Shown in pieces: positions 1 through 26,283 of a stretch of 60,671 bases of DNA. Positions within the stretch are counted from its first letter, which is position 1. Each line of letters opens with the position of its first letter. Location: contig DLMY01000054.1 in NCBI GenBank assembly GCA_002478275.1, forward strand, positions 1 through 60,671, given 5' to 3'. The position numbers were made by a program, and so were the translations under genes. This DNA comes from Actinobacteria bacterium UBA7524 (lineage in GTDB: Bacteria; Actinomycetota; Coriobacteriia; Anaerosomatales; UBA912). The notes below the pieces were generated by a model that made no database searches, had not been told where the DNA came from, and worked only from the letters and a program-made list of their open reading frames with translations.

Positions 1-21
1 ACCACTTGACGGGACATGGCC

Positions 22-69
22 TGCGTTCTAAGGCCCTGGAATCGAGCGGGTAGGGGTCTGGCTAGGGGC
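22..69 (+). repeat. 48-bp direct repeat, copy 1 (copy 2 at 2555-2602)
   Basis: tgcgttctaaggccctggaatcgagcgggtaggggtctggctaggggc aligns without gaps to 2555-2602 at 42/48 positions. Confidence 0.85.
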
Positions 70-658: not shown

Positions 659-823
659 GTTGGCTCATACCTCACAATCGGGTAGTTGGTTTGTTGGTTA
701 CTGGTATACGCCGTCTATTGGTTATTGTCAACGGGTCGAGTTGCAGCCTTGTCTGCGGTACCATTCGGCACGCGTTTGGCATTTGAGGCAGAGCGCGCAG
801 GGGTGTTGCGTATACGGCTGAGG

Positions 824-909
824 TACTAGCAAGTGCCTCCAGCTGACGCGGCAAGCGTTAGACTGAACTACAAGGCTTCGGCGCACAGCTGAAGCACCGG
901 ACGTTAGGG
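824..909 (+). other. degenerate integron attC-like site 1
   Basis: tactagc ... gtgcctccagctgacgcg pairs with cgcacagctgaagcac ... gttaggg; left arm has an unpaired C and A, as in attC sites. Confidence 0.7.
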
Positions 910-925
910 GGAAGGTCGGGGCTCG

Positions 926-1597
926 ATGGCAGCAGCAACGCCACCGTTCATACATCATTCAGGTGACGCCAATGCTGTTCTCTTCTCTGGCAAGCGAGTT
1001 CCGTGGGCACTGGCAGTGCTGGTGTGGGTGGTAGCGATCGTTGCTCCTGTGGCCGCTTCCGTTCTCTGGATTGCACTTGGCCCCGCATGGATGCATCAGC
1101 CAAGCATCGGACCCGCAGAGGTCCTGATTGCCCTGGCTTCGGGGTCGCTTGTCGTCGTCCCGGTTCGACTAGGCTGGACTGGCAAGTGGCATGAGCGCCA
1201 ACACCAACGCGTAATCGAGGAGATAACGGGGGGCTCCGCGCTCGGGAGCTGGGGCAAGTGGCGCCGGACGATATGTGGAGGAGTGCGACTCAGGAAGCAC
1301 GGCGATTTCTGCACTCCGCTCCCCGACGACTGGATCAGAGGCGACCTCCACCGGGTCGTCGCGCTCGCGCCGCTTCTCCTTCACCTGCGATGGTGGGCGC
1401 CGATATGCTTGCTGGCTGTTCTCCCTATTCCGTACTACATCCTCGTGCTGGTGGCAGTGCTGCCCGCTGCGCTCTTGCTCCTTGGAGGCTGCCTCCAAGA
1501 TGTCGCTGAGGTGATCTGGCTGTGGCAGATGAGGTTCGAGACGACGGTCCCGTATGTGACGGCGGTTGGGCACCGGACCTACGTAGTCAAGATGTAG
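926..1597 (+). CDS. hypothetical membrane protein (cassette-like)
   Basis: 223-aa ORF with several hydrophobic segments, lying between attC-like sites 1 and 2. Confidence 0.65.
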   Translation: MAAATPPFIHHSGDANAVLFSGKRVPWALAVLVWVVAIVAPVAASVLWIALGPAWMHQPSIGPAEVLIALASGSLVVVPVRLGWTGKWHERQHQRVIEEITGGSALGSWGKWRRTICGGVRLRKHGDFCTPLPDDWIRGDLHRVVALAPLLLHLRWWAPICLLAVLPIPYYILVLVAVLPAALLLLGGCLQDVAEVIWLWQMRFETTVPYVTAVGHRTYVVKM

Positions 1598-1600
1598 CTC

Positions 1601-1702
1601 CGCTTGCGGAGATTTCGACCGCGACAGCCACGGCTCGTGAGGTAGTCTGAGATAGCAGCCATTCTGGGCCGCGGCTGCGGGTCAAACCTAAGAGCGTCAG
1701 CC
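1601..1702 (+). other. degenerate attC-like site 2
   Basis: agatttcgaccgcgacagccacggctc pairs with gggccgcggctgcgggtcaaacct with extra C/A bulges; ends in gtcagcc (cf. GTTAGCC). Confidence 0.65.
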
Positions 1703-1725
1703 GGACAGACTGAGGCGTGTGAATC

Positions 1726-2409
1726 GTGGCGCATGTGTACATCTACACCGACGGTGCTGCCAGTCCCAATCCGGGACCAGGCGGATATGGTGTCGTTCTG
1801 CTGTACGGTAAGCATCGCAAGGAACTCTCGTGCGGTTTCGTGCGCACGACAAACAACCGCATGGAACTGCTCGCCGTGATTACCGGACTCGAGTCGCTGA
1901 AGCGTGCGTGCCAGGTCACAATCTACAGCGACTCGCGGTACGTTTGTGATGCGGTCAACAAGAAGCGGCTAGACAAGTGGCAGCTGAACAGGTGGCGACT
2001 CTCGTCCGGTCACGACGTGAAGAACGTCGATCTGTGGAAGCGCTTCCTCGTGGCAAGTCAGCCACACGAGATACGGCTGTGCTGGATCAAGGGACACTCG
2101 GGTACGCCTGAAAACGAGCGCTGCGACGGACTGGCGACGCAAGCCTCGAGACAGCGGGACCGAAACGAGGACGACGGGTTCGTGGAGGATGCTGCTGGTC
2201 CCGGGAAGGCTTTCCACCCGAAGCAGCGAGTGGGAGACGAAGTCTGCCGCAAATGCGGTTCTCCAGTGGAGAGGTGCGTGCCGTCGAGGAAGCGCAAGCG
2301 GGGACAGACCTACTACTACGAGTGGTACTTGCGATGCACCGGGTGCAGAACGATGTACATGGTTGATGAGGCGAAGCGTGCAATCCCGGCTGATGGCACT
2401 GCCGGCTAG
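1726..2409 (+). CDS. rnhA: ribonuclease HI with C-terminal CxxC...CxxC zinc-finger extension
   Basis: YTDGA, NPGPGGYG, TTNNRMEL, SDSRY, KNVDLW and WIKGHSG-PENERCD motifs; C-terminal CRKC and CTGC. Confidence 0.93.
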   Translation: MAHVYIYTDGAASPNPGPGGYGVVLLYGKHRKELSCGFVRTTNNRMELLAVITGLESLKRACQVTIYSDSRYVCDAVNKKRLDKWQLNRWRLSSGHDVKNVDLWKRFLVASQPHEIRLCWIKGHSGTPENERCDGLATQASRQRDRNEDDGFVEDAAGPGKAFHPKQRVGDEVCRKCGSPVERCVPSRKRKRGQTYYYEWYLRCTGCRTMYMVDEAKRAIPADGTAG

Positions 2410-2509
2410 CAAGCGCCTCCTTAGTGTCACTCTGCCCTGTGGGCTGCCTGACGAGAGTCGGGTAGGCTCGAATCCGGCAGCGGAGCGATCCACCGCGCTT
2501 CTGTCACAC
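2404..2509 (+). other. degenerate attC-like site 3
   Basis: ggctagc-aagcgc overlaps the rnhA stop and pairs with gcgctt-ct-gtcacac; inner pairing is poor. Confidence 0.45.
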
Positions 2510-2554
2510 ATGGGCTGACCGTCCTCGACAGCGGCGAGAACCGACCGCTTGTGT

Positions 2555-2602
2555 TGCGTTCTAAGGCCCCGGAATCGACCGGGTAATGGTACGGCTAGGG
2601 GC
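2555..2602 (+). repeat. 48-bp direct repeat, copy 2
   Basis: tgcgttctaaggccccggaatcgaccgggtaatggtacggctaggggc, 42/48 identical to 22-69. Confidence 0.85.
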
Positions 2603-2648
2603 TAGAAACACCGTCTCTGAGCAGGACGGCTAAGGTTCGTTTAGAAAA

Positions 2649-2667
2649 GGGTATCACGGTGATACCC
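2649..2667. promoter_or_regulatory. perfect palindrome (candidate protein-binding site)
   Basis: gggtatcac-g-gtgataccc, 9-bp arms, just downstream of the relaxase gene. Confidence 0.5.
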
Positions 2668-2697
2668 CCCTGTTTGCGGAGGCCCTTCGCAGGCTGC

Positions 2698-4236
2698 TCA
2701 CCTCTCGCGATCCGGTCGGCCCACGTTCGGCTCCGCCCCGGCCCAGATACCCCGGTACCGCTCCAGTGCGCGCTTTCGTCGGGCGACGATACCGCGATCT
2801 GTCACTCGCTGATTCGCGAGCGCGTGATCGAGGTCGCGGAAGACCTGAGCCGCTAGGTAGGCCGCAGCCGACAGCCCTGCCATGACGGGCGCCGCTCGCT
2901 CCCCACCGGTGGCGCGCTCGAGAGCCGTCACGTCTTCATTGCGCAGATGACCGCTCTCAGCTCCGCGGCTCCACGAGACATCGATCTCCTCCGAGAGGTC
3001 GCGCCCGCCGAGAGCAACTGCGGTGGCCTCCCTCCCCACACCCGCGGCACCGCATGCCCGCGCCGCCCGGATGCGGTCGCGCTCGAAGCACGCCGGGTCG
3101 AGCCCGCGAGACGTCAGGACGGGCACCGCCCGCCAGGCCCGCTCCCTCAGGTGGTGTTGCTCCAGTTCCGCCGCTGCGTGGAGCACGCTCTGGCCGATGC
3201 GATGCTCGAGGTCCTCGGCTGCAGCCGCACGCGCGTCGGACAGAAGCGGGGCCTGGCTCGTCTGGTACCTCGCCATCTGCTCGGCGAGGGCGACGTACCG
3301 ATCCGCCGCGGCCCGATTCGTCGACTCACCCAGGAGCTGGCTCACCACTTCGGTGACAGCCGTCTTCGTCTCGGGGGGCATGTAGCCGAGAGCAAGCCGG
3401 CCGTGGCCCGGCAGTGTGGCAGCCACTCGCTCAAGCCCCGTTGCCAGCGCCTCCAGATGCTGAGGCGATGGGACCGGCGTGGCGGCCGGCCGCCTGAGGT
3501 CGACCGGAGACGCACCAGGCGCCCAGTCCATGAGCTCGCTCACGACTTGCAGCTCGGTGCGCGTGCTCGCCACCAACGCATCCCGGATGGCACCCTTCTC
3601 CGCGCCGAGGTCGGCACAGACGGGTCGCCACAGCTCCCGGGTCAGCGTCTCCCGAAGACCTGTGAGAGCGTCGGCGGCGATCGTGTCGTGGCCGCGTTTC
3701 CTGTCCGCCGAATCCCATGCGATCACATGCAGATGCGGGTGCCCCTCGGACGGATGAAGAGCGGCGACCCACCGCAGCCGGTCGACGGGGATCCCGAGTC
3801 CGTGAGCCAGGGTCGGCGTCTGCTCGCACATGAAGTGCTCCCAGGAGTCCTTGTCCACAAGCCCCACCGCAGCCGCCGTCTCCTCGCGGACCGAGAGGAT
3901 GATGCGGTACGCGGGTGAGTTCTCGAGCGCGTTCAACTCCCTGCGGACGGTCATCGGATCCGCCACACCCAACCTATCGAAGAGTCCGTGCAGCTGCAGA
4001 CCGTCTGGGGTCTCACGCGCCACCCCCGGACGTTCCGAGATGTACGCCAGGTACGCATCGTCGGCGGAGACATCGCGGTGCTGCGCCCGGAGCAGTGACG
4101 CCTCGGTCACCGTCGTGTCGACGCCCGGCCGGGTGCCGATGTACTTGAGGTGCGCCGCGTTACCGGATTGCACGCGTGCCGCGTCCGGACTCTTGAAACT
4201 GAGCTTGACTACCAGGTTGCTGGACGACATGCGCAC
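2698..4236 (-). CDS. MobP3/MobL-like HUH relaxase
   Basis: N-terminal LVVKLSF...HLKYIGTRPGV, YISERPG, HGLF, IILSVRE and H-x4-HPHLHV relaxase motifs. Confidence 0.85.
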   Translation of the reverse strand: MRMSSSNLVVKLSFKSPDAARVQSGNAAHLKYIGTRPGVDTTVTEASLLRAQHRDVSADDAYLAYISERPGVARETPDGLQLHGLFDRLGVADPMTVRRELNALENSPAYRIILSVREETAAAVGLVDKDSWEHFMCEQTPTLAHGLGIPVDRLRWVAALHPSEGHPHLHVIAWDSADRKRGHDTIAADALTGLRETLTRELWRPVCADLGAEKGAIRDALVASTRTELQVVSELMDWAPGASPVDLRRPAATPVPSPQHLEALATGLERVAATLPGHGRLALGYMPPETKTAVTEVVSQLLGESTNRAAADRYVALAEQMARYQTSQAPLLSDARAAAAEDLEHRIGQSVLHAAAELEQHHLRERAWRAVPVLTSRGLDPACFERDRIRAARACGAAGVGREATAVALGGRDLSEEIDVSWSRGAESGHLRNEDVTALERATGGERAAPVMAGLSAAAYLAAQVFRDLDHALANQRVTDRGIVARRKRALERYRGIWAGAEPNVGRPDRER

Positions 4237-4242
4237 CCTCCC

Positions 4243-4686
4243 TCATTCGGCCGAGGACGTGGTGTCATCCGGGTCGTCCTCGGGGGACGACCCGATCGTC
4301 TGGCGCGCGAATGACACGGCCCTCCCGCGACAGGTGTCGTAGAACCGCTGGGCCTCGGCCGTGCTGAAGTCGCACTGCTGCACGAGCACCTCGAGGCTGA
4401 GGAACGTGGCAGTCGCTGACGCGATCACTCCCTTCGCGATGAGAGAGCGAACCGCCGCCGCGAGACGCTCCGAAGCGTCTCGCGTTGCGGCGAAGACCAT
4501 CTGCTCGAGCGTCCCGCGCTGGGCCTCGTAGGCGTCGGATGTCAGGCAGAATTCCACGTACTCGTGCGCCAGGGTTGTAGGCGGCACGCCACGCGCCGCA
4601 GCCACCTTCGCAAGAAGCTCGTAGGTCTGCTCATCAAGCCGCAACGCCACTCGCTTACCGCCTGCACTTGTCGTTGTCACAGTCAT
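4243..4686 (-). CDS. MobC-like relaxosome accessory protein (ribbon-helix-helix)
   Basis: KRVALRLDEQTYELLAKVAAARGV RHH-like N-terminus; directly upstream of the relaxase; start reassigned to ATG at 4686. Confidence 0.65.
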   Translation of the reverse strand: MTVTTTSAGGKRVALRLDEQTYELLAKVAAARGVPPTTLAHEYVEFCLTSDAYEAQRGTLEQMVFAATRDASERLAAAVRSLIAKGVIASATATFLSLEVLVQQCDFSTAEAQRFYDTCRGRAVSFARQTIGSSPEDDPDDTTSSAE

Positions 4687-4699
4687 CACCACTTCCGAA

Positions 4700-4860
4700 T
4701 TCGTGCTTGTCTGGGATGGCAACCACCGCGCACCGTGTGGTTGCCAGATGAAACCGCCAGCTGCGGCGGGATTTCCCCTGCTCACCGGCACCGCCGGGGA
4801 TGCGTAGCCCTCCGCCTGTTGCGCTCGTGGCAACAGGCCTTATCCTGCCTTCGTTTCAGA
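4700..4860. other. candidate oriT region
   Basis: inverted repeats tggcaaccac/gtggttgcca (4717-4746) and gcctgttgc/gcaacaggc (about 4815-4838) upstream of mobC-relaxase. Confidence 0.5.
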
Positions 4861-4974
4861 ACTGACGGTCCTCCGCCGCGTCGTAGCTCTCAGACGGGGA
4901 CGCCCGTTCTCCCGTCCCCTTACCGGCATCCGTTAGACTGAGACCCGGTTGTGCTCAGCTACCGAGGGGGACAC

Positions 4975-7900
4975 GTGCGAGATCCGGTAGAGCTCTACTT
5001 CACTACGCTGCGGGACATCCACGCCTCCGGTGCGGGTGTCGCCGAGACGAGCTACTACCCGGCGCTCCAGGCGCTCCTCACGTCGATCGGTGCGGGCCTC
5101 AAGCCCAAGGTCACCGCGATCATCAACCTTCGGAACACCGGCGCCGGCATCCCCGACGGTGGTCTGTTCACCGCCCCGCAGCTCAAGGGCTGGGAGCCGG
5201 GCGCTGACACGCTCTTCGGACAGATCCCGGGGCGTGGTGCCATTGAGGTGAAGGGCACTGCTGACGATGCGCTGGCCACCGCCGAAGGCGAGCAGGTGAC
5301 CCGATACGTGGAGCGCTACGGACTAGTGCTCGTCACCAACCTCCGCGACTTCGTGCTCGTGGGCCGCAGCGCCGACGGCACTGGCACCCGGATCCTCGAG
5401 TCGCTGCGCCTGGCCACCACCGAGGCCGGCTTCTGGGCACGCGTGCAGCAGCCACGGAAGTATGCCGAGGACGCGAGCGAGGGCCTCACCGAGTTCCTCC
5501 AGCGCGTGCTGCTCCACAATGCGCCGCTTTCCGACCCGAAGGACCTCGCGTGGTTCCTTGCGAGCTACGCGCGCACCGCGAGGTTGCGCCTCGAACAGAA
5601 GCACGAGCTCCCCGCACTCGACGCGCTCCGCTCGCAGCTGGAAGACGCGCTCGGGCTCAAGTTCGAAGGTGAAAAGGGCGATCACTTCTTCCGCTCCACC
5701 CTCGTGCAGACCCTCTTCTACGGCATGTTCGCCGCCTGGGTACTCTGGGCTCGCGGACGCGACCGGTCCGAAGAGATCCCGTGGGAGAGCCGTTTCCAGT
5801 GGGAGACGGCCACCGCCACACTTCATGTCCCGATGGTCTATGAGCTCTTCCGCCAGTTCGCCGACGTACGTCAGCTCGGACAGCTCGGCATCTCCGAGGT
5901 GCTCGAGTGGGCCGAAGAGGTGCTCTGGCGCGTGCAGCGCGGCCCATTCTTCGACAAGTTCGAGGAGCATCACGCGGTGCAGTACTTCTACGAGCCGTTC
6001 CTCGAGGCGTTCGACCCGCAGCTCCGCAAGGAGCTCGGCGTGTGGTACACGCCGGACGAGGTCGTGAAGTACATGGTGGCACGCGTCGACTGGGCGCTCC
6101 GCGAGGAGCTCGGCATCGCTGACGGACTCGCCGACCCCAGCGTGGTTGTCCTGGATCCGTGCTGCGGCACCGGCGCGTACCTCGTCGAAGTGCTGCGCAA
6201 GATTGACGAGACACTCACCGCCAAGGGCGCGGATGCCCTCACGCGAAACGATGTAAAGCGCGCGGCGATGGAGCGCGTGATCGGCTTCGAGATCATGCCG
6301 GCACCGTTCGTGGTGGCGCACCTACAGATGGGAATCCTACTGGCCGAACTCGACGTGCCGCTAAAGGATGCTGACGAGCGAGCTGCTATCTACCTCACCA
6401 ACGCGCTCACCGGCTGGGGTGATGGCTCCATCCAGCCGCCGAAGGACAAGCGCGCCGTTGCGGGCCAGATGCACTCGACGCTGCTGTTCCCGGAGTTCGC
6501 CGAGGAGCGTGACGCTGCCGACCGCGTCAAGCGCGAGGAGAAGATCCTCGTGGTGATCGGCAATCCGCCGTACAACGGATACGCGGGCGTTGCACAGGAC
6601 GAGGAGGCGGAGCTGGTTGCGCCGTACAAGGCCGGTCTTGTCGAGTGGGGCGTCACAAAGAACTACCTTGACGACTTGTACGTGAGATTCATGCGTCTCG
6701 CGGAGAAGACGGTGGCTCGGAGCGGTGTGGGAGTCGTCTGCTACATCAGCAACTTCTCCTGGCTGTCCGATCCATCCGCCGTGCTAATGCGACAGTCACT
6801 GCTGGAGAGCTTTGACTCAATCGTCCTTGACTCGTTGAACGGTGATAGCAGGGAAACAGGCAAGCGGGCACCCGACGGTAGTCCGGACCCCAGCATCTTC
6901 TCCGGCCCGTCAAACACCCAGGGCATCCAGGTCGGTACCGCGATCACAACGATGATTGCCGGCGCCAGGTCCCCAGATGGCCCTCTACACAGGGACCTCT
7001 GGGGAGTCACTAAGCGAAGCCAGTTGCTCGATGAGGCCACCAGATTGCCGGACCTGCGCGAATACGCCTCCCTGGAGCCCGATGTAGGTAATCGCTACGC
7101 GCTTCGCCCGTTTACAAGCGCACCGGGATACAGCACATGGCCTTCGCTTCCAGATCTTGCAGAGACCCCACCCAGCCTCGGGCTGAACGAGAACCGCGCG
7201 GGCGCGCTGGTCGACACCGACCGTGACGCATTGCTCGAGAGGATGAGGGCATACCTGGATGCAACCATCGATGCATCCTCGCTGCCAGACACTCTGGCAG
7301 GGCTCAGGCGGCCGTGGGCGCGTTTCGACCCGGCCGACACAAGGAAGCGTCTGCTCGAGGTCGGTCTGGACGAGTCGCGCATCATCCCCTTCATGGCGAA
7401 GCCGTTTGATGTGCAGTGGGCGTACGCCGAACCGCGATTCAAGCTGTGGAATGAATCGCGCGGGCGCCTGCTGGCGCGGACGCCTCCGGGCGCGCGCTTC
7501 ATCCTGGCACGTGCTCGAGCGCCGCGTGCGCTTGACGGCGCTCCGGTGACGGTGTTCTCCGGCATCGCAGACCAACACGCGTTGCACAAGGACGCGTATC
7601 TGTTTCCACTCGAACTGAGTTCACCGAGTGAGTCTCTCTTGACGGAGGACTCTGGTGCGCCGAACCTCTCAACGTCTGCGCACGCGTACGTGAACGCGTG
7701 CAGCATGAAGGCTGAAGCCGCGTCACACGTCTGGACTCACGTTGTCGCGATCTCATACTCTCCTGCCTACCAGACTGAGAATGCGGATGCCATTCGATCA
7801 GACTGGCCTCGAATACCGATGCCTGCTGACGCGGATGTACTCGCCAAGTCTGCGGCGCTGGGAGAACGAATCATGCTCCTTCTCGACGTGTCGCCGTTGA

Positions 7901-8415
7901 GCAGCGGTACGGCCCCCCTGCCAGGATTCGCATACGGTGCGTTGTCGTCGGCAGCTGGAACCCTCGACCCAAGGGATGACCTGGGCCTCACAGCGCAATG
8001 GGGCATCGCCGGCAAGGGTGGCATCACGATGCCGTCGACCGGCAAGCTTGAGGAGCGTCCGTACACCGACGACGAGCGCCAGACGATCGCGGAGCACACG
8101 GCCACACTCGGCATGTCGGGCGTGCAGGCGATTGAGCTCCTCGGCGAGACGTGCTTCGACGTCTACCTCAACGACAAGGCGTACTGGCGCTGCGTGCCCT
8201 CGGCGGTGTGGCGCTATACGATCGGCGGCTACCAGGTAACCAAGAAGTGGCTGTCCTACCGCGAGCGAGCGCTGCTCGGCCGCGACCTCAAGCCCGAGGA
8301 GGCGCGCTATGTCACCGAGATGGTGCGCCGTATCGCCGAGCTCGTGCTGATGCAGCCCGAGCTCGACGCCAACTACAAGCGCGTGAAGGCCGACGTGTGG
8401 GAGTGGCCCGGCTAG
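4975..8415 (+). CDS. single-chain type IIG / type ISP-like restriction-modification enzyme (nuclease-N6 MTase-TRD)
   Basis: N-terminal PD...EVK nuclease motif, YTPDEVV, LDPCCGTG (motif I), GNPPY (motif IV), C-terminal WRYTIGGYQVxKKWL; GTG start after a GAGGGGG RBS. Confidence 0.9.
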   Translation: MRDPVELYFTTLRDIHASGAGVAETSYYPALQALLTSIGAGLKPKVTAIINLRNTGAGIPDGGLFTAPQLKGWEPGADTLFGQIPGRGAIEVKGTADDALATAEGEQVTRYVERYGLVLVTNLRDFVLVGRSADGTGTRILESLRLATTEAGFWARVQQPRKYAEDASEGLTEFLQRVLLHNAPLSDPKDLAWFLASYARTARLRLEQKHELPALDALRSQLEDALGLKFEGEKGDHFFRSTLVQTLFYGMFAAWVLWARGRDRSEEIPWESRFQWETATATLHVPMVYELFRQFADVRQLGQLGISEVLEWAEEVLWRVQRGPFFDKFEEHHAVQYFYEPFLEAFDPQLRKELGVWYTPDEVVKYMVARVDWALREELGIADGLADPSVVVLDPCCGTGAYLVEVLRKIDETLTAKGADALTRNDVKRAAMERVIGFEIMPAPFVVAHLQMGILLAELDVPLKDADERAAIYLTNALTGWGDGSIQPPKDKRAVAGQMHSTLLFPEFAEERDAADRVKREEKILVVIGNPPYNGYAGVAQDEEAELVAPYKAGLVEWGVTKNYLDDLYVRFMRLAEKTVARSGVGVVCYISNFSWLSDPSAVLMRQSLLESFDSIVLDSLNGDSRETGKRAPDGSPDPSIFSGPSNTQGIQVGTAITTMIAGARSPDGPLHRDLWGVTKRSQLLDEATRLPDLREYASLEPDVGNRYALRPFTSAPGYSTWPSLPDLAETPPSLGLNENRAGALVDTDRDALLERMRAYLDATIDASSLPDTLAGLRRPWARFDPADTRKRLLEVGLDESRIIPFMAKPFDVQWAYAEPRFKLWNESRGRLLARTPPGARFILARARAPRALDGAPVTVFSGIADQHALHKDAYLFPLELSSPSESLLTEDSGAPNLSTSAHAYVNACSMKAEAASHVWTHVVAISYSPAYQTENADAIRSDWPRIPMPADADVLAKSAALGERIMLLLDVSPLSSGTAPLPGFAYGALSSAAGTLDPRDDLGLTAQWGIAGKGGITMPSTGKLEERPYTDDERQTIAEHTATLGMSGVQAIELLGETCFDVYLNDKAYWRCVPSAVWRYTIGGYQVTKKWLSYRERALLGRDLKPEEARYVTEMVRRIAELVLMQPELDANYKRVKADVWEWPG

Positions 8416-8479
8416 TCCTGCTGAGCATGTCAGCACTGACAGGTAGGTTGGGCGAGAGTCTCGATACGAAAGGAGCGAC

Positions 8480-8887
8480 ATGTTCGTGTTGTATGAGGGC
8501 TCAGTCAAGGGCGATTACCAGGGCAAGACCGTGCTGGATCTGCTCGGCAATGTCGATGCAAACAGAAAAGGTGAGAGATTCAGCGAGCACGGGTTCGAAG
8601 GCGGCACAATCTGGCTGTACGACAGCGAAGAGTGGGCGGATCTTGTTGACTACTTCTTCAACGATGATACTGACGGCCAGCCGGAGGAGGAGCGTATTCG
8701 TGACGCGGAGTCATGGCTGGCAAGGACGGGCATGCCTCGCCGAATTTCATCCAATCAGTTGATCGTGAACATGCGCGGCACCGATGAACACTACCGGACC
8801 TTCAGCCATGAGATCGGCCACGAGGAAATCAACAACATGCTGAAGACTGCCTTTCCTGACTACGGCTATCGAGTCGTCGAGGAGTAG
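8480..8887 (+). CDS. acidic hypothetical protein
   Basis: 135-aa ORF with an AAGGAG RBS. Confidence 0.75.
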   Translation: MFVLYEGSVKGDYQGKTVLDLLGNVDANRKGERFSEHGFEGGTIWLYDSEEWADLVDYFFNDDTDGQPEEERIRDAESWLARTGMPRRISSNQLIVNMRGTDEHYRTFSHEIGHEEINNMLKTAFPDYGYRVVEE

Positions 8888-8892
8888 TCGGC

Positions 8893-8959
8893 ACGCAACT
8901 GCGATTGGTCAGCCGCGACTACTCGAGGCAGGCTCGCCGAGGCCAAACCGCTGTTGCGC
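8893..8959 (+). other. possible attC-like site 4
   Basis: acgcaac ... gttgcgc termini with imperfect inner arms, immediately after the 8887 stop. Confidence 0.35.
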
Positions 8960-8987
8960 GGGGGCGGGTCCTCAAGATGGGGGCACG

Positions 8988-19029: not shown

Positions 19030-19572
19030 TCAGGTGTCGATCGGTGGTGTCAGATTCATGTTCACCAGGTCGACGAGGTTCGCCCCGGACGCCCCGGCCA
19101 AGAGGCTGCCCCGGCCGAGCGTCATCGCGTAGACGATGTCGGACAAATGGTGGACCAGGATCCCCGCTTCCCGCATGAGCTCCAGCTCACGTTCGTACTT
19201 CACCTTGTGCACCACAAGTTCGTGGGTCCAATCCGCGTCGCACAACCGGGTTCGGAGCTTGACCTTCGACGGGTAGTGGAACTTCTTGTGCGTCCACTCA
19301 GCGATTCCCTCTCGGAGCTCATCGTCAGAACGGGTCTTCGCACTTCCAGAGGCGCGACCGGTGCTCCTCTGCACATGCGTGGGCACGTTGGTGATGTAGC
19401 TTACAGGGTGCACCGAGGCTTGAACTTCGACGTGACGACACACGGGGGCGCCGTCATTGAACTTGATCGCGAGCAGGTCCATCTCATGGACACCGAGCTT
19501 GATGCCGCGAATCGTGAAGAAACCCTGCCGGTTGAGCCACTCCTCAACGAGCTCTTCCGCGAGTAGCGCCAT
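19030..19572 (-). CDS. PD-(D/E)xK-like nuclease
   Basis: AEELVEEWL...EMDLLA...HVEVQAS nuclease-like pattern. Confidence 0.7.
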   Translation of the reverse strand: MALLAEELVEEWLNRQGFFTIRGIKLGVHEMDLLAIKFNDGAPVCRHVEVQASVHPVSYITNVPTHVQRSTGRASGSAKTRSDDELREGIAEWTHKKFHYPSKVKLRTRLCDADWTHELVVHKVKYERELELMREAGILVHHLSDIVYAMTLGRGSLLAGASGANLVDLVNMNLTPPIDT

Positions 19573-19649
19573 CCCGACCCCCGTCCACCTCGTGAATCCG
19601 TGACCCGAGCATACCGCAGACAGGCGGCGCATTCTGCGAATAGCGCACG

Positions 19650-20132
19650 TCAGGTGCGCAGCACCAGTTCGTATTCGAGCTCGTCCTCGATCGCGACGCA
19701 GCCCTCTCCGAGGAGAGGGATCTCAGGCTTCAGCGCCCGGGCTGACGTCACCGCGCCGAGGTGGACTGCGACGAGCGACCAGCCGCACGCACGATAGAAG
19801 TGTTGTGCATTCGTGTTGTCATTAGTCGTCACGAGCCAGACACGACGGCACCCGGCAGCCTTCGCCTGTTCGGCAAGTGCCCCCAGAAGCGCGGTGCCGA
19901 CGCCACGACGAGACTGCACTGCAATGAGTGTCACGACCTCTATGTCGCCCGCATCGTCGAGGCGGTAGTGCAACAGACCGACCGGCACTCCAGAGTCATA
20001 GGCCGTCAGACACGGTAGGCCGACCGTCTCATGCACGCGACCTCGAGAGACCACGCGCACTGAGCCGAAGTGATCAGCGACGAGCGCCTCAGCCGACGCC
20101 TGATCAGCACGATCGAGTGAACGAACCTCCAC
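19650..20132 (-). CDS. GNAT N-acetyltransferase
   Basis: RRGVGTALL and LVTTNDNTNAQHFYRACGW motifs. Confidence 0.9.
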   Translation of the reverse strand: MEVRSLDRADQASAEALVADHFGSVRVVSRGRVHETVGLPCLTAYDSGVPVGLLHYRLDDAGDIEVVTLIAVQSRRGVGTALLGALAEQAKAAGCRRVWLVTTNDNTNAQHFYRACGWSLVAVHLGAVTSARALKPEIPLLGEGCVAIEDELEYELVLRT

Positions 20133-20185
20133 GTTGCCCCCGATTGACCCACTGCGCCCAGCAGTCCAGCGCTTCCCGCTGGCGA

Positions 20186-20539
20186 TTAGGTGGTTCGAAC
20201 GAGGAACGGCGCGAAGGAGACACCGCTGTCAACGGGAACCACGTTGCGGAACCGATCAGGGAGATCCACAGCGAGCTCGAGGCTCACCCTAGCTGCGTCA
20301 TCCCTGACGTGGAGAGCCGCCAGATTCTCTTTCACGAATCCAACGGGGATACTCAGGTGGTGAAGCTCGGATGTCCGTCCATCAAAGAGAGCCAGGTCAA
20401 CAGACTCAGCCTCTGTGTCGGCGAGCGCTGACAGTGGGATATCAACCCACCAAACATCCTTCGCTGAGTTGATGTTCGCGAACCGCGTCAGTTGAGTCGG
20501 CTCGATTCCCAGTCGTGCGAGAGCTTGCGCCTTGTCCAC
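20186..20539 (-). CDS. hypothetical protein
   Basis: 117-aa ORF with GGAGG RBS, just downstream of attC-like site 5. Confidence 0.65.
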   Translation of the reverse strand: MDKAQALARLGIEPTQLTRFANINSAKDVWWVDIPLSALADTEAESVDLALFDGRTSELHHLSIPVGFVKENLAALHVRDDAARVSLELAVDLPDRFRNVVPVDSGVSFAPFLVRTT

Positions 20540-20556
20540 CCTCCGACCCCTTCCCT

Positions 20557-20657
20557 GTGCGACAGCGCGTCAGCATTCCAGCTGAGGCGCCGCCCGACCT
20601 TCCCTGCCCGAGTCTACCGCACCCGGGTGCGTCTTCTGCTCGACGCTCAGGTTGGGC
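20557..20657 (-). other. degenerate attC-like site 5
   Basis: minus strand begins GCCCAAC (perfect RYYYAAC) just after the ATPase stop, has imperfect arms and ends gtcgcac. Confidence 0.5.
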
Positions 20658-20671
20658 ACTCAGGAGCCACG

Positions 20672-22960
20672 TCAGCCGATCACCTTCAGGGCCTTCTTGG
20701 CGTACAGCTCCGTACTCGTCGCGTTCAGAACCTCATCCCCGGGAGCATGTGTTGAACCGTGGTGGCGGTGGTTCGTCGCTTTCGCGATTACCTTGATGTC
20801 GGATAGGCTGGGCTTCATGCACGCCAAGGATGCTGCCGGGTCCGCAGACTCAATTCGCTCGGCCATGGAGCCAAGCCAGTCCTCTGCGCCGAACTCACCT
20901 GGGAAGCGCTGGCGGAGGTAGTCCTCCAGGAACGGTCGCAGACTCCGCGAGGCAACCTCCCAACTCACAGCTTCGCCAGCCACGTAATCCGCAATAGTGA
21001 AGTAGTTGCGGAAGTAGTCCGTGGCGAGGTCACGATCCATTGTGTCCCACTCTCGGACGCAGCTCGTCGTACCCTCACGACGAATGCATAGCACCTTGCG
21101 TACGTCACTGGCGGTAGCGCGATAAAGCATATGGGCAAGTCTGGGCTCGTGTGTGAGGACCACAACCTGCGACAGGCTGTTCATCATGGAGACAAGCGTG
21201 TCCGCGATGAGCAGTCTGCGCTCCTGATCGAGACTGTTCACCGGATCATCGACCACAACAACAACGTCAGCGAGATCCGCCCGATTCTTGACGTGGGCCA
21301 TAAAGAGGGCCAGCGCGAACAGGTTCTTCTCGCCATCACTCAATGTGTTGCCGAAACAAGGCACGTCCTTCACAACAGCCGGCTTGCCGAGAGGGACACT
21401 GATGCCACCAACGCTTATCGAGTAGTCCACACTCGGCGGCTTCGTCTGGTGGTTCGCTCGCGGGTTCTCGATTCTGATTGCCGAGCCGAAGTGCTTGAGG
21501 TAGGTATTCATGTCATCGCGGTATCGGGCCAACAGAGATTCGATACCCTGATTCATCTGCTGCCTTGCGGCCTGCCCATCAGCCGTGATCTTGGCCTTCT
21601 TGGCGGTGAGCTCAGAGAACTCGACGCAGAGCGAGGAGACTGCACCCTCATACCTCTGCTTCTGATTATGAAGCTGGTCAATCTGCCTCTGCAGCCCCAC
21701 CAGGTCGGCGCTTTGAACGGCGGCAACGAAATCAGTGATTTCGTTAGAGGCGGCGCCGAGTTGAGCTTCCGCCCGCTGCACAACCCCCAGAGACTCCTTG
21801 AGCAATCGGAGGTGCTCCTCTATCGGCGCGAAGTCGACCGCACGGAGTGGGTCACCCTTCTTCATCTCAATCGCCGTCCGAATGGCAGCACATGAGTTCA
21901 CCGCTAACTCGATGGACGGCGCCAAGTCGGTCGACAGCGCAGGGACGTCGATCTTGGGCACCTGCCCCTCCCACGTTCTCGCGACATCGCGTTGCCGCAG
22001 CACTCGCTCCGCATCCCGCTCGAGAGTAGTCGGGTCATATTGCTCAAGAAGAGCCCCGAGGTCAGCGTTCAAGCTCCGCTCGTAGTCTTCATACGCTGCA
22101 CTGAAGTACTGCCGAAGAGCCGCGTAGAGTTCCGAGTCATCGAGCGACTGGTCACAGAAGGGACACCTGGCTTCGTCCACGTACTTCATACCCTCGCGCA
22201 ACCAAGAGCCCCCAGCTCCTGCCATCCTCTGTTGTCTGTGCGCTGCCACCCGTGCAATCGCCTCGACCGAGATGGAATCGATTGAACGCGCCATGACACT
22301 GCGTAGTGGACCCTCATCCGGGCTCAGAAGGTGCACGCGGGTCGGAAGCGGCTTTGATGCAATAGCTGCGATATCCCGCGCAGCGGCGAACTTCCGCTTG
22401 GCCTCATCAAGAAGGGCGTCAACGTCCTCAAGGGGCTGCAGGCCAACGAAATCGCCAACGCTTGAGGTGCCACGAATGTGCGACCTGATGCCGGCCTCCA
22501 CATCACGTAGGCGCGCGTTCACGTCGTTGAGCTCCTGCCGAAGCTCCTCGAGGCGTTGGCCCTCAGCAACTGCAGTGCGGCCGATGAGCAGGGAGCATAG
22601 GCCCTTCTGTTGGTCGTTGGAAACGTGATCACCTGAGTAGACGACTCGGGAGACGAAGTCGCTGCAGAAGACTTCCAGCTCCGGACATGTGGAGTCCCAC
22701 TCGCCATGACTGAATGTGTGCATACCAGCCGAGGACAGTATGCGTACTGTCGGCTCGCCGCTGGCGCCGAGGGTCTTCCTGCCTAGGATGGTGCCTGCAG
22801 TCCCTTCTCTCAGGGAGTCGAGAACTGCGGCGAGAGTCGTCTTTCCGATGGCATTATCGCCATAGACGATGGTCAGCTTCTTGAACGTCTGGTCTCCAAC
22901 GGCCGCATGCTGCCTCAGCTTGCCAACGTTGGAGATCTCAACGACCTTCTCAATCATCAC
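20672..22960 (-). CDS. AAA_13/RloC-like SMC-type ATPase with zinc hook
   Basis: YGDNAIGKTT Walker A, CPFC hook in coiled coil, LSDGEK signature, VVVDDPVNSLD Walker B, LTH, C-terminal NHRHH. Confidence 0.85.
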   Translation of the reverse strand: MMIEKVVEISNVGKLRQHAAVGDQTFKKLTIVYGDNAIGKTTLAAVLDSLREGTAGTILGRKTLGASGEPTVRILSSAGMHTFSHGEWDSTCPELEVFCSDFVSRVVYSGDHVSNDQQKGLCSLLIGRTAVAEGQRLEELRQELNDVNARLRDVEAGIRSHIRGTSSVGDFVGLQPLEDVDALLDEAKRKFAAARDIAAIASKPLPTRVHLLSPDEGPLRSVMARSIDSISVEAIARVAAHRQQRMAGAGGSWLREGMKYVDEARCPFCDQSLDDSELYAALRQYFSAAYEDYERSLNADLGALLEQYDPTTLERDAERVLRQRDVARTWEGQVPKIDVPALSTDLAPSIELAVNSCAAIRTAIEMKKGDPLRAVDFAPIEEHLRLLKESLGVVQRAEAQLGAASNEITDFVAAVQSADLVGLQRQIDQLHNQKQRYEGAVSSLCVEFSELTAKKAKITADGQAARQQMNQGIESLLARYRDDMNTYLKHFGSAIRIENPRANHQTKPPSVDYSISVGGISVPLGKPAVVKDVPCFGNTLSDGEKNLFALALFMAHVKNRADLADVVVVVDDPVNSLDQERRLLIADTLVSMMNSLSQVVVLTHEPRLAHMLYRATASDVRKVLCIRREGTTSCVREWDTMDRDLATDYFRNYFTIADYVAGEAVSWEVASRSLRPFLEDYLRQRFPGEFGAEDWLGSMAERIESADPAASLACMKPSLSDIKVIAKATNHRHHGSTHAPGDEVLNATSTELYAKKALKVIG

Positions 22961-22991
22961 CGAACCCCCCGGATCACACCCGCGGTGACTA

Positions 22992-23091
22992 ATGTGACGC
23001 CTCGGCGCTTCAGCAGCGGCGTGCCAGCGAGCGCTTACCAGCCGAGTCTAACGTATGAGGCGCGCCGTCTGTGTGGAAGCGCGGGCTAGAC
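22992..23091 (-). other. degenerate attC-like site 6
   Basis: minus strand gtctagc-ccgcgcttccacacagacggcgcgcc pairs with ggcacgccgctgctgaagcgc-cgaggc-gtcacat, with extra C and A. Confidence 0.7.
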
Positions 23092-23105
23092 ACACCCGGT
23101 GCTGC

Positions 23106-23579
23106 CTACGGACGAACGTCCCGCGTGACTGGCTCGGGCGTGTCGTGAGCAACAATCTCTGCGAACTCCTCGTCTGTCGGGGCCTCAGCGCTCAGTTGAT
23201 GCTCGTACTGACTTCTGCAGAAGCGCGGCGACCCATGGAGTCGCTTGCTGCAGGAGCCCGCTGCAGCCTGTGCGATTGCATTGACGGCCTGTACGTAGTC
23301 TGGTCCGAACGATGGATCCACGACGAGTGCGACGGTTGCCAGGGTGGGCTCAACCCATTGCACTGAGTTCGTCTTGAAGTCGCGCACTTCCTTGTTCCGA
23401 AAGTCAGCGCTCAGAGCCATCAGCACCAACTCCTCTGCCGCATCGCGCAGGACGTGTAGCCGCCAGCAGTAGCGGAACTGATCTTCAGCCTCGCAGCCGC
23501 GCTTGCATGCCCCGACGAAGTAGACCTCCCCGGTCAGCGGGTCCTTGCCCAGCGGGCACTCACGACCTTTGACCTCCAC
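23106..23579 (-). CDS. Cys-rich hypothetical protein (cassette-like)
   Basis: 157-aa ORF ending just before attC-like site 6. Confidence 0.5.
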   Translation of the reverse strand: MEVKGRECPLGKDPLTGEVYFVGACKRGCEAEDQFRYCWRLHVLRDAAEELVLMALSADFRNKEVRDFKTNSVQWVEPTLATVALVVDPSFGPDYVQAVNAIAQAAAGSCSKRLHGSPRFCRSQYEHQLSAEAPTDEEFAEIVAHDTPEPVTRDVRP

Positions 23580-23839
23580 ATGGACCCCCTGTCAGGCGAT
23601 ACCCGTTGTGCCTAAACCACGGTTGAGCAGTCCGCAGAATCTTCACCCACATCTTACCTGCTTCTACACTGCCCCAAGGACTCATCTTCACGCAACGACC
23701 GAGGCGCTCGCTCGGTGCAGCACTCGCCACTCCTGAAGCCCACCGAAGGCTGTTCTCCGGCCAATAGGCGAGTGAATGGCGAGTTTCCGAGCCCTCCCCG
23801 CCCTCGCCAACCAGCGCGTGTCGACCTCTTTACGCAGGT

Positions 23840-23869
23840 CAGCCCGCCTATTTTGCAATAGACGGGCTG
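23840..23869. terminator. hairpin next to the att site
   Basis: cagcccgcctatt/aatagacgggctg stem, downstream of the minus-strand tRNA 3' fragment. Confidence 0.55.
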
Positions 23870-23878
23870 TCTAGAATC

Positions 23879-23936
23879 TGGTGCCCCCAAGGGAATTCGA
23901 ATCCCGATAGTGCTTGTGACTATTGGGACTCGTTGG
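23879..23936 (-). mobile_element. att-like site: tRNA(Glu)-like 3' fragment plus element end, copy 1
   Basis: reverse complement GGGATTCGAATTCCCTTGGGGGCACCA (T-loop, acceptor strand, CCA); 56/58 identical to 60614-60671. Confidence 0.88.
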
Positions 23937-24032
23937 GACTCGTTGGTACAGCGGAGCTGCGGCGAGTCCCAATAGGTACCAACGAGTACCAACAGTCACC
24001 ATGTATTTGGGCAACAAATCGGGCAACAAATC
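23916..24032. repeat. element-end repeats (candidate integrase arm / Xis binding sites)
   Basis: tandem ttgggact/ttggtac units inverted against gagtcccaa/gtaccaac units, then gggcaacaaatc twice. Confidence 0.7.
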
Positions 24033-24188
24033 CGAGGCATCATGCGAAGAGCCTCATGAGTCCTTAACGACATCATGAAGCCCAAGCGTGATCCATTCAC
24101 GGGAGCCGCGTAGAGTCCGCGATAGCTGACCGCCGAAAGCGCCGCGGAGGTGCAGCGGGCCCGTCTCAAGCAGCGCCAATCCGTCCGG

Positions 24189-25013
24189 TTAGCCGTCAAC
24201 CGCGAACTCCATCGTCTCGATCAACCCCGACATCACCGAGAAGGCGTACTGCCTGAACTGCTCGTCGCTCAGGCCGGGGAAGGCCGTGGGCGGCTTCTGG
24301 TTGAGAAGCGCATCGACACCACTAGACTCCGGCCCGTCGAAGATCGCGTTCAGGTTCTTGAGGCTCTTCTTGAACCATGCCGGCTTCTGCGCGGCGAGGC
24401 GCTCGAGTTCCGCGTCGATCGCCTCTCGCCACTCCGGAAATGCGTCCAGCACGAAGAAGACGTAGTAGAGATCCTTCTCCGCTTTGAGCCGGTCCCGGCG
24501 ATTCCTGAACACCAGCGACTTGTGGAAGACGAAGGTGCCGGGCCTCGGGACGAGGATCGTCAGGGCGACGACTCCGTCGGTCAGGCCGGCGAGGTCGACC
24601 GGCCACGGGCTATCGAGCAGGAGCCCGACGTAGTGCAGCTCTTGGGCCGTGAGATCGGGCTGCACCATGATCGCGGCCTCGGACGCGCCTGGCGCGTCGG
24701 TGATGAACTCGATCTCTACTTCGTCATCGCCAAGGGTCGCGACGTACTTCGTGACTGGCGGCGAATCCAGCGAGTGGAACTCACAGCGGAAGCTGGCACT
24801 CTTGAGCAGCTCATCGATGCTCCGGCTCCTGACGGGCACCGACCGGGGCACGGCGAGGTCGATGTCGCGTGTCCGAGGTGACCGGCCCGCCGCGGCGGCA
24901 TCGTAGAGGAGTTCGTAGATGTGCGGCACCCATCCCCCGGCAACGACGACCACGTCGAGGTAGGGTTCGATGGCGGCAAGGCCGCGCGCAAGGACCGGGT
25001 CGAGCCGGCTCAC
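24189..25013 (-). CDS. nucleotidyltransferase-fold protein (AbiEii-like toxin)
   Basis: VVVAGGW...RTRDIDL and FHK...KAEKDLYY motifs. Confidence 0.8.
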   Translation of the reverse strand: MSRLDPVLARGLAAIEPYLDVVVVAGGWVPHIYELLYDAAAAGRSPRTRDIDLAVPRSVPVRSRSIDELLKSASFRCEFHSLDSPPVTKYVATLGDDEVEIEFITDAPGASEAAIMVQPDLTAQELHYVGLLLDSPWPVDLAGLTDGVVALTILVPRPGTFVFHKSLVFRNRRDRLKAEKDLYYVFFVLDAFPEWREAIDAELERLAAQKPAWFKKSLKNLNAIFDGPESSGVDALLNQKPPTAFPGLSDEQFRQYAFSVMSGLIETMEFAVDG

Positions 25014-26283
25014 GGTCGATCATCCCGTTCCACGAGCGAGCGCAGGCGTCGTTCGTAGAGGTGCTCGGCCTGCTCCCGGCCACGGACGGGATAGTCGTAG
25101 AGGTCCAGATAGAGCTGGAGGTCGGAGGCCACGCTGATCCCGCCTTTCGACATCTGCCGGTCGTAGAACGCCGACTCCCGGTAGTAGGGCACCGATATGT
25201 TGACGTTGCCGCCGCGCTCGACTCGCCGTGCGCCGAGGGCTGCAAGCGCTGGCACCGCATCTTCGAGTTCCCTGACGTAGACGTCCGCGACGTCGAACAC
25301 AGTGTAGCGGTCGACGAGACTCGCACCGGCGTGGCCCGTGAGGACGTAGTCGGCACCCTTGGCGTCGAACGCCTCGGCGATGCGGGGCAGGAGGTCCTCA
25401 GCGCTCGGCGCGAGGACGAAATAGCTTGCCGGGACCGGCCGGCGACGACCTCGATACGCCGAGGTCCAGTCGCGCAGCAGCTCGTTGGCATGGCGAAGCA
25501 TGATCTTCTCATCGCTCCTGGACACGTAGCCGCGCCTCTCGAGCTCCCCNNNNNNNNNNNNNNNNNNNNNNNNNNNNNNNNNNNNNNNNNNNNNNNNNNN
25601 NNNNNNNNNNNNNNNNNNNNNNNNNNNNNNNNNNNNNNNNNNNNNNNNNNNNNNNNNNNNNNNNNNNNNNNNNNNNNNNNNNNNNNNNNNNNNNNNNNNT
25701 AGCCGCGCCTCTCGAGCTCCCCGACCATCTTGGACACATAGCCCGGGGTGAGCCCGATCCGCTCGTCTTTCGATCTGACGGTGTTCGCTATCTCACGCAC
25801 ACCCATCGGGGAGCGCGCGACGAGGAGGGTGCGGAGCACGAGCGACGCCTTGTCGGAGAAGAGGTCGCGTTGCCCGCGCTCTTCCTTGCCGGGGTTGGCG
25901 AAGCCGCGGCGATCGATGTGGATCCCCGGCACCACGAGCCACGCGTTGCCCGCGTAGTCGATGAAGGCCGCGTTCGCGTCGCGCAGCAACTGCTGGCTGG
26001 CCGGGCTGAGGTATGCCGAAGCGATGACCGTGATCGAGGATCCTTCCCCCGCGGGGGCAAGGCGCGCCAGCTCGGCGGCATCGATCAGCTGCGCCCGGCT
26101 GAAGGCGTGTTGCAGCATGACCCGGAGATGAAGACTCCCGTTCGCGAAACGCACGTCAACCTCGGCCGCTGATGCATGGCCGCGCAACTGGCTCGGACTC
26201 AGCTCGACGGCCGCGCCAGGGAAGATCTCCCGAAGCGCGTGCTTCAGACTTTGATACTCGTCGTCCATGCTTGCAGCAGCCAT
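25010..26283 (-). CDS. AbiEi-like type IV TA antitoxin (spans an assembly gap)
   Basis: SAYLSP, FIDYAGN, wHTH region and C-terminal ASDLQLYLDLYDYPVRGREQAEHL; gap flanks share tagccgcgcctctcgagctcccc. Confidence 0.8.

Follow-up and report, generated by a model that had tools for sequence, protein, structure and literature searches.

What does it mean when attC sites, the recombination sites of integron gene cassettes, repeatedly depart from the AAC and GTT triplets of their crossover core? The question is raised by a contig of Actinobacteria bacterium UBA7524, of the order Anaerosomatales (assembly GCA_002478275.1, contig DLMY01000054.1), of which positions 1 to 60,671 were analyzed and are called the window here. 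A preliminary description numbered attC-like sites 1 to 6 between positions 824 and 23091, noted that their R boxes shared the changes AAC to AGC and GTT to GTC, and proposed either that selection locks captured cassettes in place while keeping the hairpin or that a divergent recombinase uses a shifted consensus, with GC-biased drift as the null explanation. The enrichment is real: 6 of 9 core triplets in the window deviate, versus at most 19 of 256 in relatives (Fisher p = 2.7e-5). At a probability of roughly 0.55, we read the sites as old, orphaned array fragments under relaxed selection, changed at two core positions that the class 1 integrase IntI1 tolerates. The null of drift toward G/C after constraint is relaxed gives the best fit: the deviant sites of relatives are found at greater distances from the integrase gene (intI). 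The recurrent AGC and GTC cores would then mark sites that are worn and probably immobile, at the edges of an otherwise ordinary integron, and not a new recombinase specificity.

The source genome is a 1.8-Mb assembly with 63% G+C and is 83% complete. Sites were sought with three covariance models: R1, built from 23 natural attC sites adjoining IntI1-type integrase genes in public genomes; R2, specific to this genome and built from its other attC sites; and R3, built from the attC sites of relatives only. The relatives' arrays comprise the first 20 kb or less 3' of intI in 13 genomes (177 kb). Covariance-model E-values are rough, their calibration having been shortened; noise-level matches of R2 and R3 on the window score 10.4 to 14.5 bits, and the noise ceiling of R3 is 10.4 bits. 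The program IntegronFinder reportedly accepts an attC site at a covariance-model E of ≤1. In addition, an arm scan restricted to the L boxes used conserved letters and the complementarity of the two arms and ignored the R boxes; it returned 131 distinct sites in the 177 kb of relatives' arrays versus 3 in 373 kb of control DNA.

Site 1 (824..909, + strand) is a genuine attC site and the one secure site of the window. Its left box, R'', reads TACTAGC, with AGC for AAC, and its right box, R', reads GTTAGGG, with the canonical GTT. It is the top match of R1 in the window (19.3 bits, E = 0.011), the next matches of that model, at 12 to 14 bits, falling inside genes; it scores 43.5 bits with R2 (E = 1.7e-9) and 56.3 bits with R3 (E = 7.3e-13), and about 40 attC sites in relatives match it at 77 to 87% identity. 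Site 2 (1601..1702, + strand), 0.7 kb away, has the left box CGCTTGC and the right box GTCAGCC (1696-1702), which is GTTAGCC with a single T-to-C change, and carries GGTAGTCT (1641-1648) in its loop. Its scores are marginal and come from the lineage models only (R2, 15.8 bits, E = 0.056; R3, 15.3 bits, E = 0.068); it is a probable decayed attC site. At site 3, the true attC part is limited to 17 nucleotides (nt) (2404..2420, + strand), namely, the left box GGCTAGC and AAGCGCCTCC, the start of L''; what follows is an insertion sequence (IS), and the supposed right box GTCACAC (2503-2509) lies inside it. Neither R2 nor R3 matches site 3.

The remaining sites are on the minus strand. Site 6 (22987..23091), a decayed attC site with the left box GTCTAGC and GTTAGACT in its loop (23052-23045), matches weakly (R2, 19.9 bits, E = 0.0042; R3, 20.8 bits, E = 0.0023). 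Under R1, it has an E of 0.66 as a 46-nt site (23046-23091) ending at the GTTAGAC of the loop; this central GTTAGAC was rejected as the real right box, as it fits only a 12-bit alternative alignment. Its right box is broken up, the letters being GTCACAT (22998-22992) or, by R2 and R3, either G+TCACA+TTAGTC, with a 5-nt insertion at the crossover, or ATTAGTC. An otherwise canonical attC site of a relative (L222:9585-9675, + strand) carries GTAC inserted before GTTAGAT, in the same place as TCACA in site 6. Site 5 (20557..20657), 2.3 kb from site 6, was found by the arm scan only (2 mismatches, 9/10 arm complementarity) and gave no R2 or R3 match at an E of ≤10. It has a canonical left box, GCCCAAC, paired arms, and GGTAGACT in the loop (20618-20611); its right box is either GTCGCAC (20563-20557), after a spacer of 1 nt versus the usual 5 to 6 nt, or lost. 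Site 4 was not identifiable, the region from 2.5 to 20.5 kb being without a model match at an E of ≤10 except for intragenic noise. For comparison, genuine attC sites outside the training set score 29.5 to 44.6 bits with R2, versus 43.5 (site 1), 19.9 (site 6), 15.8 (site 2), and no score (site 5) in the window.

All of these sites stand behind open reading frames (ORFs) of the same strand. Stop codons precede the left box by 0 to 15 nt in sites 1, 2, 3, and 6 and by about 15 nt in site 5, and start codons follow 16 to 26 nt past the right boxes. The ORF ahead of site 1 (474-821) is weakly supported. Between sites 1 and 2, a 223-amino-acid (aa) cassette ORF without a Pfam family (926..1597, + strand) starts 16 nt past the end of site 1, behind GGAAGG; between sites 2 and 3, a 227-aa cassette ORF with an RNase H domain (1726..2409, + strand; PF00075, E = 2.7e-40) has its stop codon TAG inside the CTAGC of site 3. 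On the minus strand, a 157-aa ORF without a Pfam family (23106..23579) ends 15 nt before site 6, and a 762-aa AAA_13 ATPase gene (20672..22960; PF13166, E = 2.3e-39) lies between sites 6 and 5. The sites resemble those of sedentary chromosomal integrons and of clusters of attC sites lacking integron-integrases (CALIN): they are imperfect hairpins with the box order R''-L''...L'-R', bulged bases, and a position behind each cassette ORF on the same strand. A CALIN is reportedly defined as a group of two or more attC sites that fall within 4 kb of DNA and have no IntI in their vicinity.

The letters quoted in the preliminary description are all present: CTAGC at 826-830 (+), 2406-2410 (+), and 23089-23085 (-); CGCTTGC at 1601-1607; and four GTC heptamers. 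The core triplets read AGC/GTT in site 1, TGC/GTC in site 2, AGC without R' in site 3, AAC with GTC or without R' in site 5, and AGC with a disrupted R' in site 6, so that 3 of 9 are canonical. The left-box change is the firmer of the two, AGC being secure in sites 1, 3, and 6 (3 of 5 window sites versus 5 of 151 elsewhere; p = 9e-4). GTC, in contrast, is secure only in site 2, since one of the four boxes is IS sequence (site 3) and two are ambiguous (sites 5 and 6). Elsewhere, AGC occurs in 2 of 20 attC sites of the same genome and in 3 of 131 of the relatives, on several sequence backgrounds, and is therefore a recurrent variant rather than the mark of one lineage. In the window, the changes are uncompensated and fall at triplet positions 2 and 3; all but one are transitions at A/T letters, which necessarily run toward G/C. 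The changes cannot be polarized, because neither cassette gene has homologues in the relatives, bar one 78-nt match.

The other attC sites of the genome are mostly canonical and do not support a shifted recombinase consensus. With R1 and R2, 20 further attC sites were found outside the window on contigs C4, C20, C27, C28, C31, C38, C42, and C58, which binning assigns to the same genome; contigs with more than one have them all on a single strand, at spacings of 0.3 to 2 kb. R1 alone already gave strong, canonical sites on small contigs. The genome thus holds a real cassette array, fragmented by assembly. The left triplet is AAC in 16 of the 20 (AGC in 2, GAC in 1, GAT in 1), and the right triplet is GTT in 19 (GAT in 1). 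Among arm-ascertained sites of the relatives, the left box has AAC in 123 of 131 and the right box has GTT in 117 of 131, with GCT in 4, GTC in 2, GTG in 1, and GGT in 1, the other deviants being register shifts, indels, and false hits.

The integrases agree with the sites. Of the order's 146 genomes, 96 encode an IntI above the curated cutoff of TIGR02249 (over 265 bits), mostly at 450 to 490 bits, and two of these belong to the same family; in the assembled 83% of the present genome no protein exceeds the cutoff, the best match (81.5 bits) being Xer-like. Cassette arrays lie 3' of intI on the same strand (76 R1 matches in the 177 kb of 13 relatives), and 376 kb from the 5' side (20 stretches) gave no match. 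In 8 of the 13 relatives, the junction of attI with a cassette ends in a GTTAGRY-like sequence about 130 to 190 nt past the intI stop codon. We considered whether GTCAC might be a displaced right half of attI, and this was rejected, since the junctions read GTT and the site 3 motif is IS sequence. Likewise, compensation of AGC in R'' by GCT at the cassette's 5' end was seen in only one of three hand-paired left-box AGC cassettes of one relative (G069), and none of the three other GCT boxes there precedes AGC. A lineage-specific integrase recognizing AGC/GTC therefore has in its favor the clustering of these triplets in the window and nothing else; with the genome's own attC sites, the relatives' arrays, IntI, and the attI junctions largely canonical and with AGC and GCT unpaired within cassettes, this explanation is for practical purposes refuted.

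Integrons have been reported from several phyla including the Actinobacteriota (PMC8618304); our literature search found nothing on integrons or attC sites in the Coriobacteriia. The arrangement of the array 3' of intI on the same strand recalls the "atypical" integrons described for Treponema, in which intI is transcribed toward the cassettes (PMC3607928), although the phylum is different. Within-lineage similarity of the sites is a feature shared with sedentary chromosomal integrons, and the cluster of sites without an integrase in the assembled contig is one shared with CALIN as described in PMC4889954. Unlike typical sedentary-integron attC sites, those of the window have a core damaged in 6 of 9 triplets, and most sites are 84 to 105 nt long with a conserved -10-like loop motif.

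We propose that two short pieces of the array of a sedentary chromosomal integron, orphaned from the rest, lie in the window, one comprising sites 1-2-3 on the plus strand and the other sites 6-5 on the minus strand. The integron appears to be near-universal in the order, the sites appear to belong to its ordinary attC family, and its integrase would use the canonical AAC/GTT. Several features may have isolated the fragments: no integrase gene is assembled nearby, the contig begins with an IS, site 3 is interrupted by an IS110-type element, and a mobilizable element and defense genes lie between the two. The IS at the contig start parts the first fragment from whatever stood upstream. As little or no recombination would remain to maintain the crossover triplets, these would drift by A-to-G and T-to-C transitions, and drift toward G/C fits a genome of 63% G+C. 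The hits would accumulate at triplet positions 2 and 3, which IntI1 tolerates when changed in one partner, and spare the first position, which must match; fixation of the cassettes would be a by-product of core decay.

The distribution of deviant sites in the relatives is in keeping with this proposal and provides a first hint that core damage grows with distance from intI. The median distance to intI is 10,958 nt for deviant sites versus 5,938 nt for canonical sites (one-sided Mann-Whitney p = 0.005; 0.049 without the richest locus), and the deviant share per successive 5-kb bin from intI is 7.5, 9, 22, and 20%. On contig C42 of the present genome, GAT triplets occur in the two leftmost detected attC sites, and the rightmost attC site ends 22 nt from the contig end.

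Several observations weigh against relaxed selection as the explanation. The gradient is weak: a single genome supplies 7 of the 16 deviant sites, and the related genomes are not independent. In sites 1, 2, 5, and 6, the core A/T letters are changed in 7 of 16 cases versus 0 of 20 in five other conserved A/T columns (p = 0.0014); this count is biased, since the sites were found via their arms. The -10-like loop motif is kept in all four window attC-like sites, and under plain neutral decay, the arms should be worn as well. None of the 9 window triplets is changed at its first, G/C position, which reflects either constraint or small numbers. The right heptamers of sites 5 and 6 are alike (GTCGCAC and GTCACAT), with three mismatches each to GTTAGRC, and have the look of a junction or of small indels more than of single point mutations. 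Finally, the genome being 83% complete and the contig starting at an IS, an integrase may exist unassembled.

Published work on IntI1 suggests what such changes would cost. As reported in PMC2811028, an attC site with an unpaired triplet recombined at 6e-6, versus 2.2e-3 for the wild type; the second nucleotide of the triplet was "quite tolerant," and only the first had to match between partners. In the same report, GTC was neutral with a wild-type partner, lowered recombination 150-fold if both partners carried it, and was uncleaved in vitro. The window sites resemble the attCaadA7 and attCVCRd mutants of Frumerie et al. (PMC2811028) in deviating at the second (AGC, the complement of GCT) and third (GTC) positions. 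They differ in that the mutants described there kept their pairing, the two strands of the folded site having been altered together, and the window sites are uncompensated; the one uncompensated mutant of that study fell about 370-fold. The integrase of that study, unlike the one here, is of class 1. A mutated R'' also served as a non-excising control in the experiments of PMC12901181. By analogy, an unpaired or GTC core should lower recombination at least a hundredfold; the sites would be strongly attenuated, and the cassettes would thus in effect be fixed. The window is a natural counterpart of the IntI1 mutagenesis, with deviations piling up at core positions 2 and 3 and sparing the first.

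The locking of cassettes by selection, with the hairpin kept, is the most substantial of the alternatives, and we consider it rather unlikely. Defense cassettes would be fixed, and the hairpin with its -10 motif would be kept as a promoter or insulator while the core was free, or favored, to break. The contrast between core and other conserved A/T letters (7/16 versus 0/20) speaks for it, as do the presence of GNTANNNT in 4 of 4 window attC-like sites versus 87 of 140 in the family, the ORF starts 16 to 26 nt past each right box, the same arrangement in contigs from four other studies (three of five bridging contigs without a difference, the other two with 6 and 29), and the defense-type neighbors AAA_13, GmrSD, and AbiE. 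Arms and loop motif are indeed kept, but other points speak against selection: arm conservation is an ascertainment effect, since decayed arms would escape detection; sites 2 and 6 have scores near noise and are worn overall; the motif is only a putative promoter; and by Pfam, neither cassette of the stretch from site 1 to site 3 is a defense gene, one having no family and the other being an RNase H. Less probable still is an origin of the odd right boxes as junction products, either of an attC site with a noncanonical secondary site or of small indels at the crossover, which would leave a G with foreign letters behind it. The 5-nt TCACA that, according to R2 and R3, separates G from TTAGTC at site 6 (or the alternative ATTAGTC) would suit such an origin, as would the 4-nt insertion at the same point in a relative reading GAC-GTAC-GTTAGAT, the spacer of 1 nt instead of 5 to 6 nt or missing 7-mer of site 5, and the rule that the first nucleotide alone must match between partners (PMC2811028). 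Yet the right box of site 2 is a single T-to-C change from GTTAGCC, AGC in the left box cannot have this origin, since R'' is not exchanged, and no matching half of a secondary site was found.

That the sites are chance hairpins or terminators and not attC sites at all is very improbable for the set as a whole, but possible for sites 2 and 5 taken alone. Fold energies are no better than those of shuffles for most sites: z-scores against dinucleotide shuffles run from -1.4 to +0.7, or from -2.5 to +0.7 with exact borders, and for site 1, they are +0.15 on the bottom strand and -2.5 on the top strand. We dropped weak folding as evidence against attC sites, since genuine attC sites of the same genome fold modestly too (median z of -2.0, range to +0.2); the class 1 attC controls (median z of -4.5) had been chosen partly by fold energy. 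An all-against-all alignment of intergenic regions showed no likeness among the sites above background, and a BLAST search of the genome with sites 1 and 6 returned no repeat family, so that the sites cannot be found by sequence similarity alone. Rfam had no match in the window at gathering scores and none below an E of 2 in 2350-2620. Against chance stand the E of 7e-13 of site 1 with R3, built from relatives only, its roughly 40 homologues in the relatives' arrays, and the score of site 6, which is 10 bits over the noise ceiling. The claim of attC-type sites thus holds firmly for site 1, weakly for site 6, and marginally for site 2; it fails for most of site 3, and for site 5, it depends on the arm scan.

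The loop of these attC sites carries a promoter-like motif. Among 140 long-loop attC sites of the 13 relatives and the present genome, 87 have GNTANNNT on the cassette-sense (top) strand, compared with 4 that have it on the bottom strand; in shuffled loops, the mean is 6.8 and the maximum is 17, and the real counts include related, nonindependent sites. The commonest forms are TAGACT (31) and TAGAAT (11), with TACAAT also found; the middle letters vary. A -10 element of the sigma-A type reads TANNNT in the sense orientation, has a G at -14, and is followed some 7 nt downstream by the transcript start; such a motif is typical of actinobacterial promoters. In the window, the motif stands at 857-864 (+), 1641-1648 (+), 20618-20611 (-), and 23052-23045 (-) in sites 1, 2, 5, and 6, respectively; in site 1, TAGACT (859..864) lies on the cassette-sense strand, preceded by G at -14. 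A median of 21 nt separates the end of the motif from the right arm, so that transcription would begin inside the attC site and read into the next cassette. The motif may, judging from these letters, be a built-in promoter for that cassette.

Tentatively, we go one step further: the attC site might do double duty, with a -10 element in its loop as the promoter of each downstream cassette, and those window sites that lost their core and kept their arms might be exapted as fixed promoters. If so, each cassette would bring the promoter of its downstream neighbor, long arrays would need no single cassette promoter (Pc), and the supposed locking would hold but be driven by expression. Cassette-borne promoters, and one transcript start inside the attC site of a gene-less Vibrio cassette, have been described (PMC8876359 and PMC11014356); a literature search on promoters within attC sites, which did not extend to supplements, found no family-wide loop motif. 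GTTAGACT occurs four times in the 1.8-Mb genome, always on this contig: twice in attC loops and twice outside them, at 4932-4939 and 44167-44174, upstream of a type ISP restriction gene that starts at 4951 and of a TetR gene that starts at 44310, respectively. The latter two copies resemble common promoters with a -10 element of this kind.

The IS in site 3 appears from its copies in relatives to be a truncated, left noncoding end of an IS110-family element (2421..2523, + strand), a stump of 103 nt without transposase, inserted in the L'' box; the GTC of site 3 is therefore no R box. A search of the order with window positions 700-2720 showed that 2403-2523 matches at least 30 places in relatives at 75 to 90% identity. 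In an alignment of 30 copies, the left 17 nt, which comprise an attC left box and the start of L'', are variable and read mostly CTAAC or CGAAC, and everything from TTAGTGTCAC on is conserved. In whole copies, the left-end alignment continues unbroken into the start of an ORF, which in copy L234 encodes 360 aa with DEDD_Tnp_IS110 (PF01548) and Transposase_20 (PF02371) domains. In both readable whole copies (L234 and L236), the attC remainder (AGCAGACGCG...GTTAGCT) resumes after the right end of the IS. From the variable attC left part, the conserved IS, and the resumption of the attC site past the right end, the insertion point is GCGCTTCC|AGC of attC sites. Copies of this type lie at window 2421-2523, L234:1516-2900, and G000 C31:6848-6973 (-).

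The noncoding region of the element repeats its target, as a CCGCGCTTCTGTCAC stretch that holds GTCACAC and as CCGCGCTTCT. It also has paired stretches: between the window and locus L220, every difference kept its pair, and the 30-copy alignment, by eye, has one compensated G-C to T-A change. The region is likely a seekRNA or bridge RNA aimed at attC sites; Rfam gave no match to it at an E of ≤0.1. Work on such RNAs predicts a copy of the target in the guide (PMC11187229). As in the IS1111-attC group (ISKpn4 and ISPst6) of the seekRNA-guided IS110/IS1111 elements described there, a DEDD-transposase element has entered attC sites at one constant position, always facing the same way, and a long noncoding region holds the target copy. 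Unlike ISKpn4 and ISPst6, which according to the same source belong to the IS1111 family with the long noncoding region downstream, the present element has it upstream of the transposase gene, the IS110 arrangement. A hammerhead-like reading of CUGACGAG...GAA in site 3 was abandoned, its core letters being lost in relatives. The near-universal chromosomal integron with co-oriented intI, the promoter-like loops, and the IS110-type element apparently guided to attC sites are features at the level of the order, and they bear on the expression of long arrays and on the RNA-guided targeting of IS elements.

The 2.1-kb stretch with sites 1 to 3 is present nearly verbatim in sequencing runs of many studies, seven of the best holders being possibly the source. 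Contigs from four other studies bridge site 1 (832-1140 and 672-884), site 2 (1446-1891), and site 3 (2173-2483 and 2169-2778), the three at sites 1 and 2 without a difference and the two at site 3 with 6 and 29. The proposed search for cassette movement gave nothing in its favor: the Logan contigs of four runs contain no attC-to-attC joint, which is weak evidence for immobility because contigs drop rare variants. Other joints lie inside the RNase H gene with sides of 23 to 25 nt, probably come from other organisms, and were rejected as movement; loose ends at 826/860, 907, and 2418 are other attC sites or other insertions of the same IS and were rejected as well.

The surroundings of the two fragments are rich in mobile and defense functions. 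Positions 1..21 are the end of a multicopy IS, at which the contig breaks; the same 21 to 25 nt end contigs C7, C8, C44, and C55 (both ends). After the plus-strand fragment follows a block of mobile-element and defense genes (2698..15397) with a MobL-like relaxase, a type ISP restriction-modification enzyme, DUF3800, a DnaB-like helicase, and a tyrosine integrase. Beside the helicase gene, 12222-12320 consists of three tandem 33-nt units (TGGGTGTGCCGTTACGGCACAGGCAACCTCGTC) with a small hairpin in each; these could be iterons of a replication origin. A one-strand run of defense-type genes (15947-25525, - strand), comprising GmrSD, GNAT, the AAA_13 ATPase, and an AbiEi/AbiEii pair, holds the decayed sites 5 and 6, and part of this defense island may be built from integron cassettes. 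A 48-nt direct repeat (22..69, + strand, and 2555-2602; 87.5% identity) is the sole intergenic pair in the window over the shuffled background in the all-against-all alignment; copy 1 abuts the IS end at the contig start, copy 2 lies 30 nt past the IS110 stump, and both terminate in GGCTAGGGGC. A palindromic repeat at 23916-23999 (GTGACTATTGGGACTCGTTGG...), the 25-nt start of which recurs at the right end of the contig (60647-60671), is probably another mobile-element end; contigs C22 and C7 have related letters at their ends, and one relative (L238) has them too.

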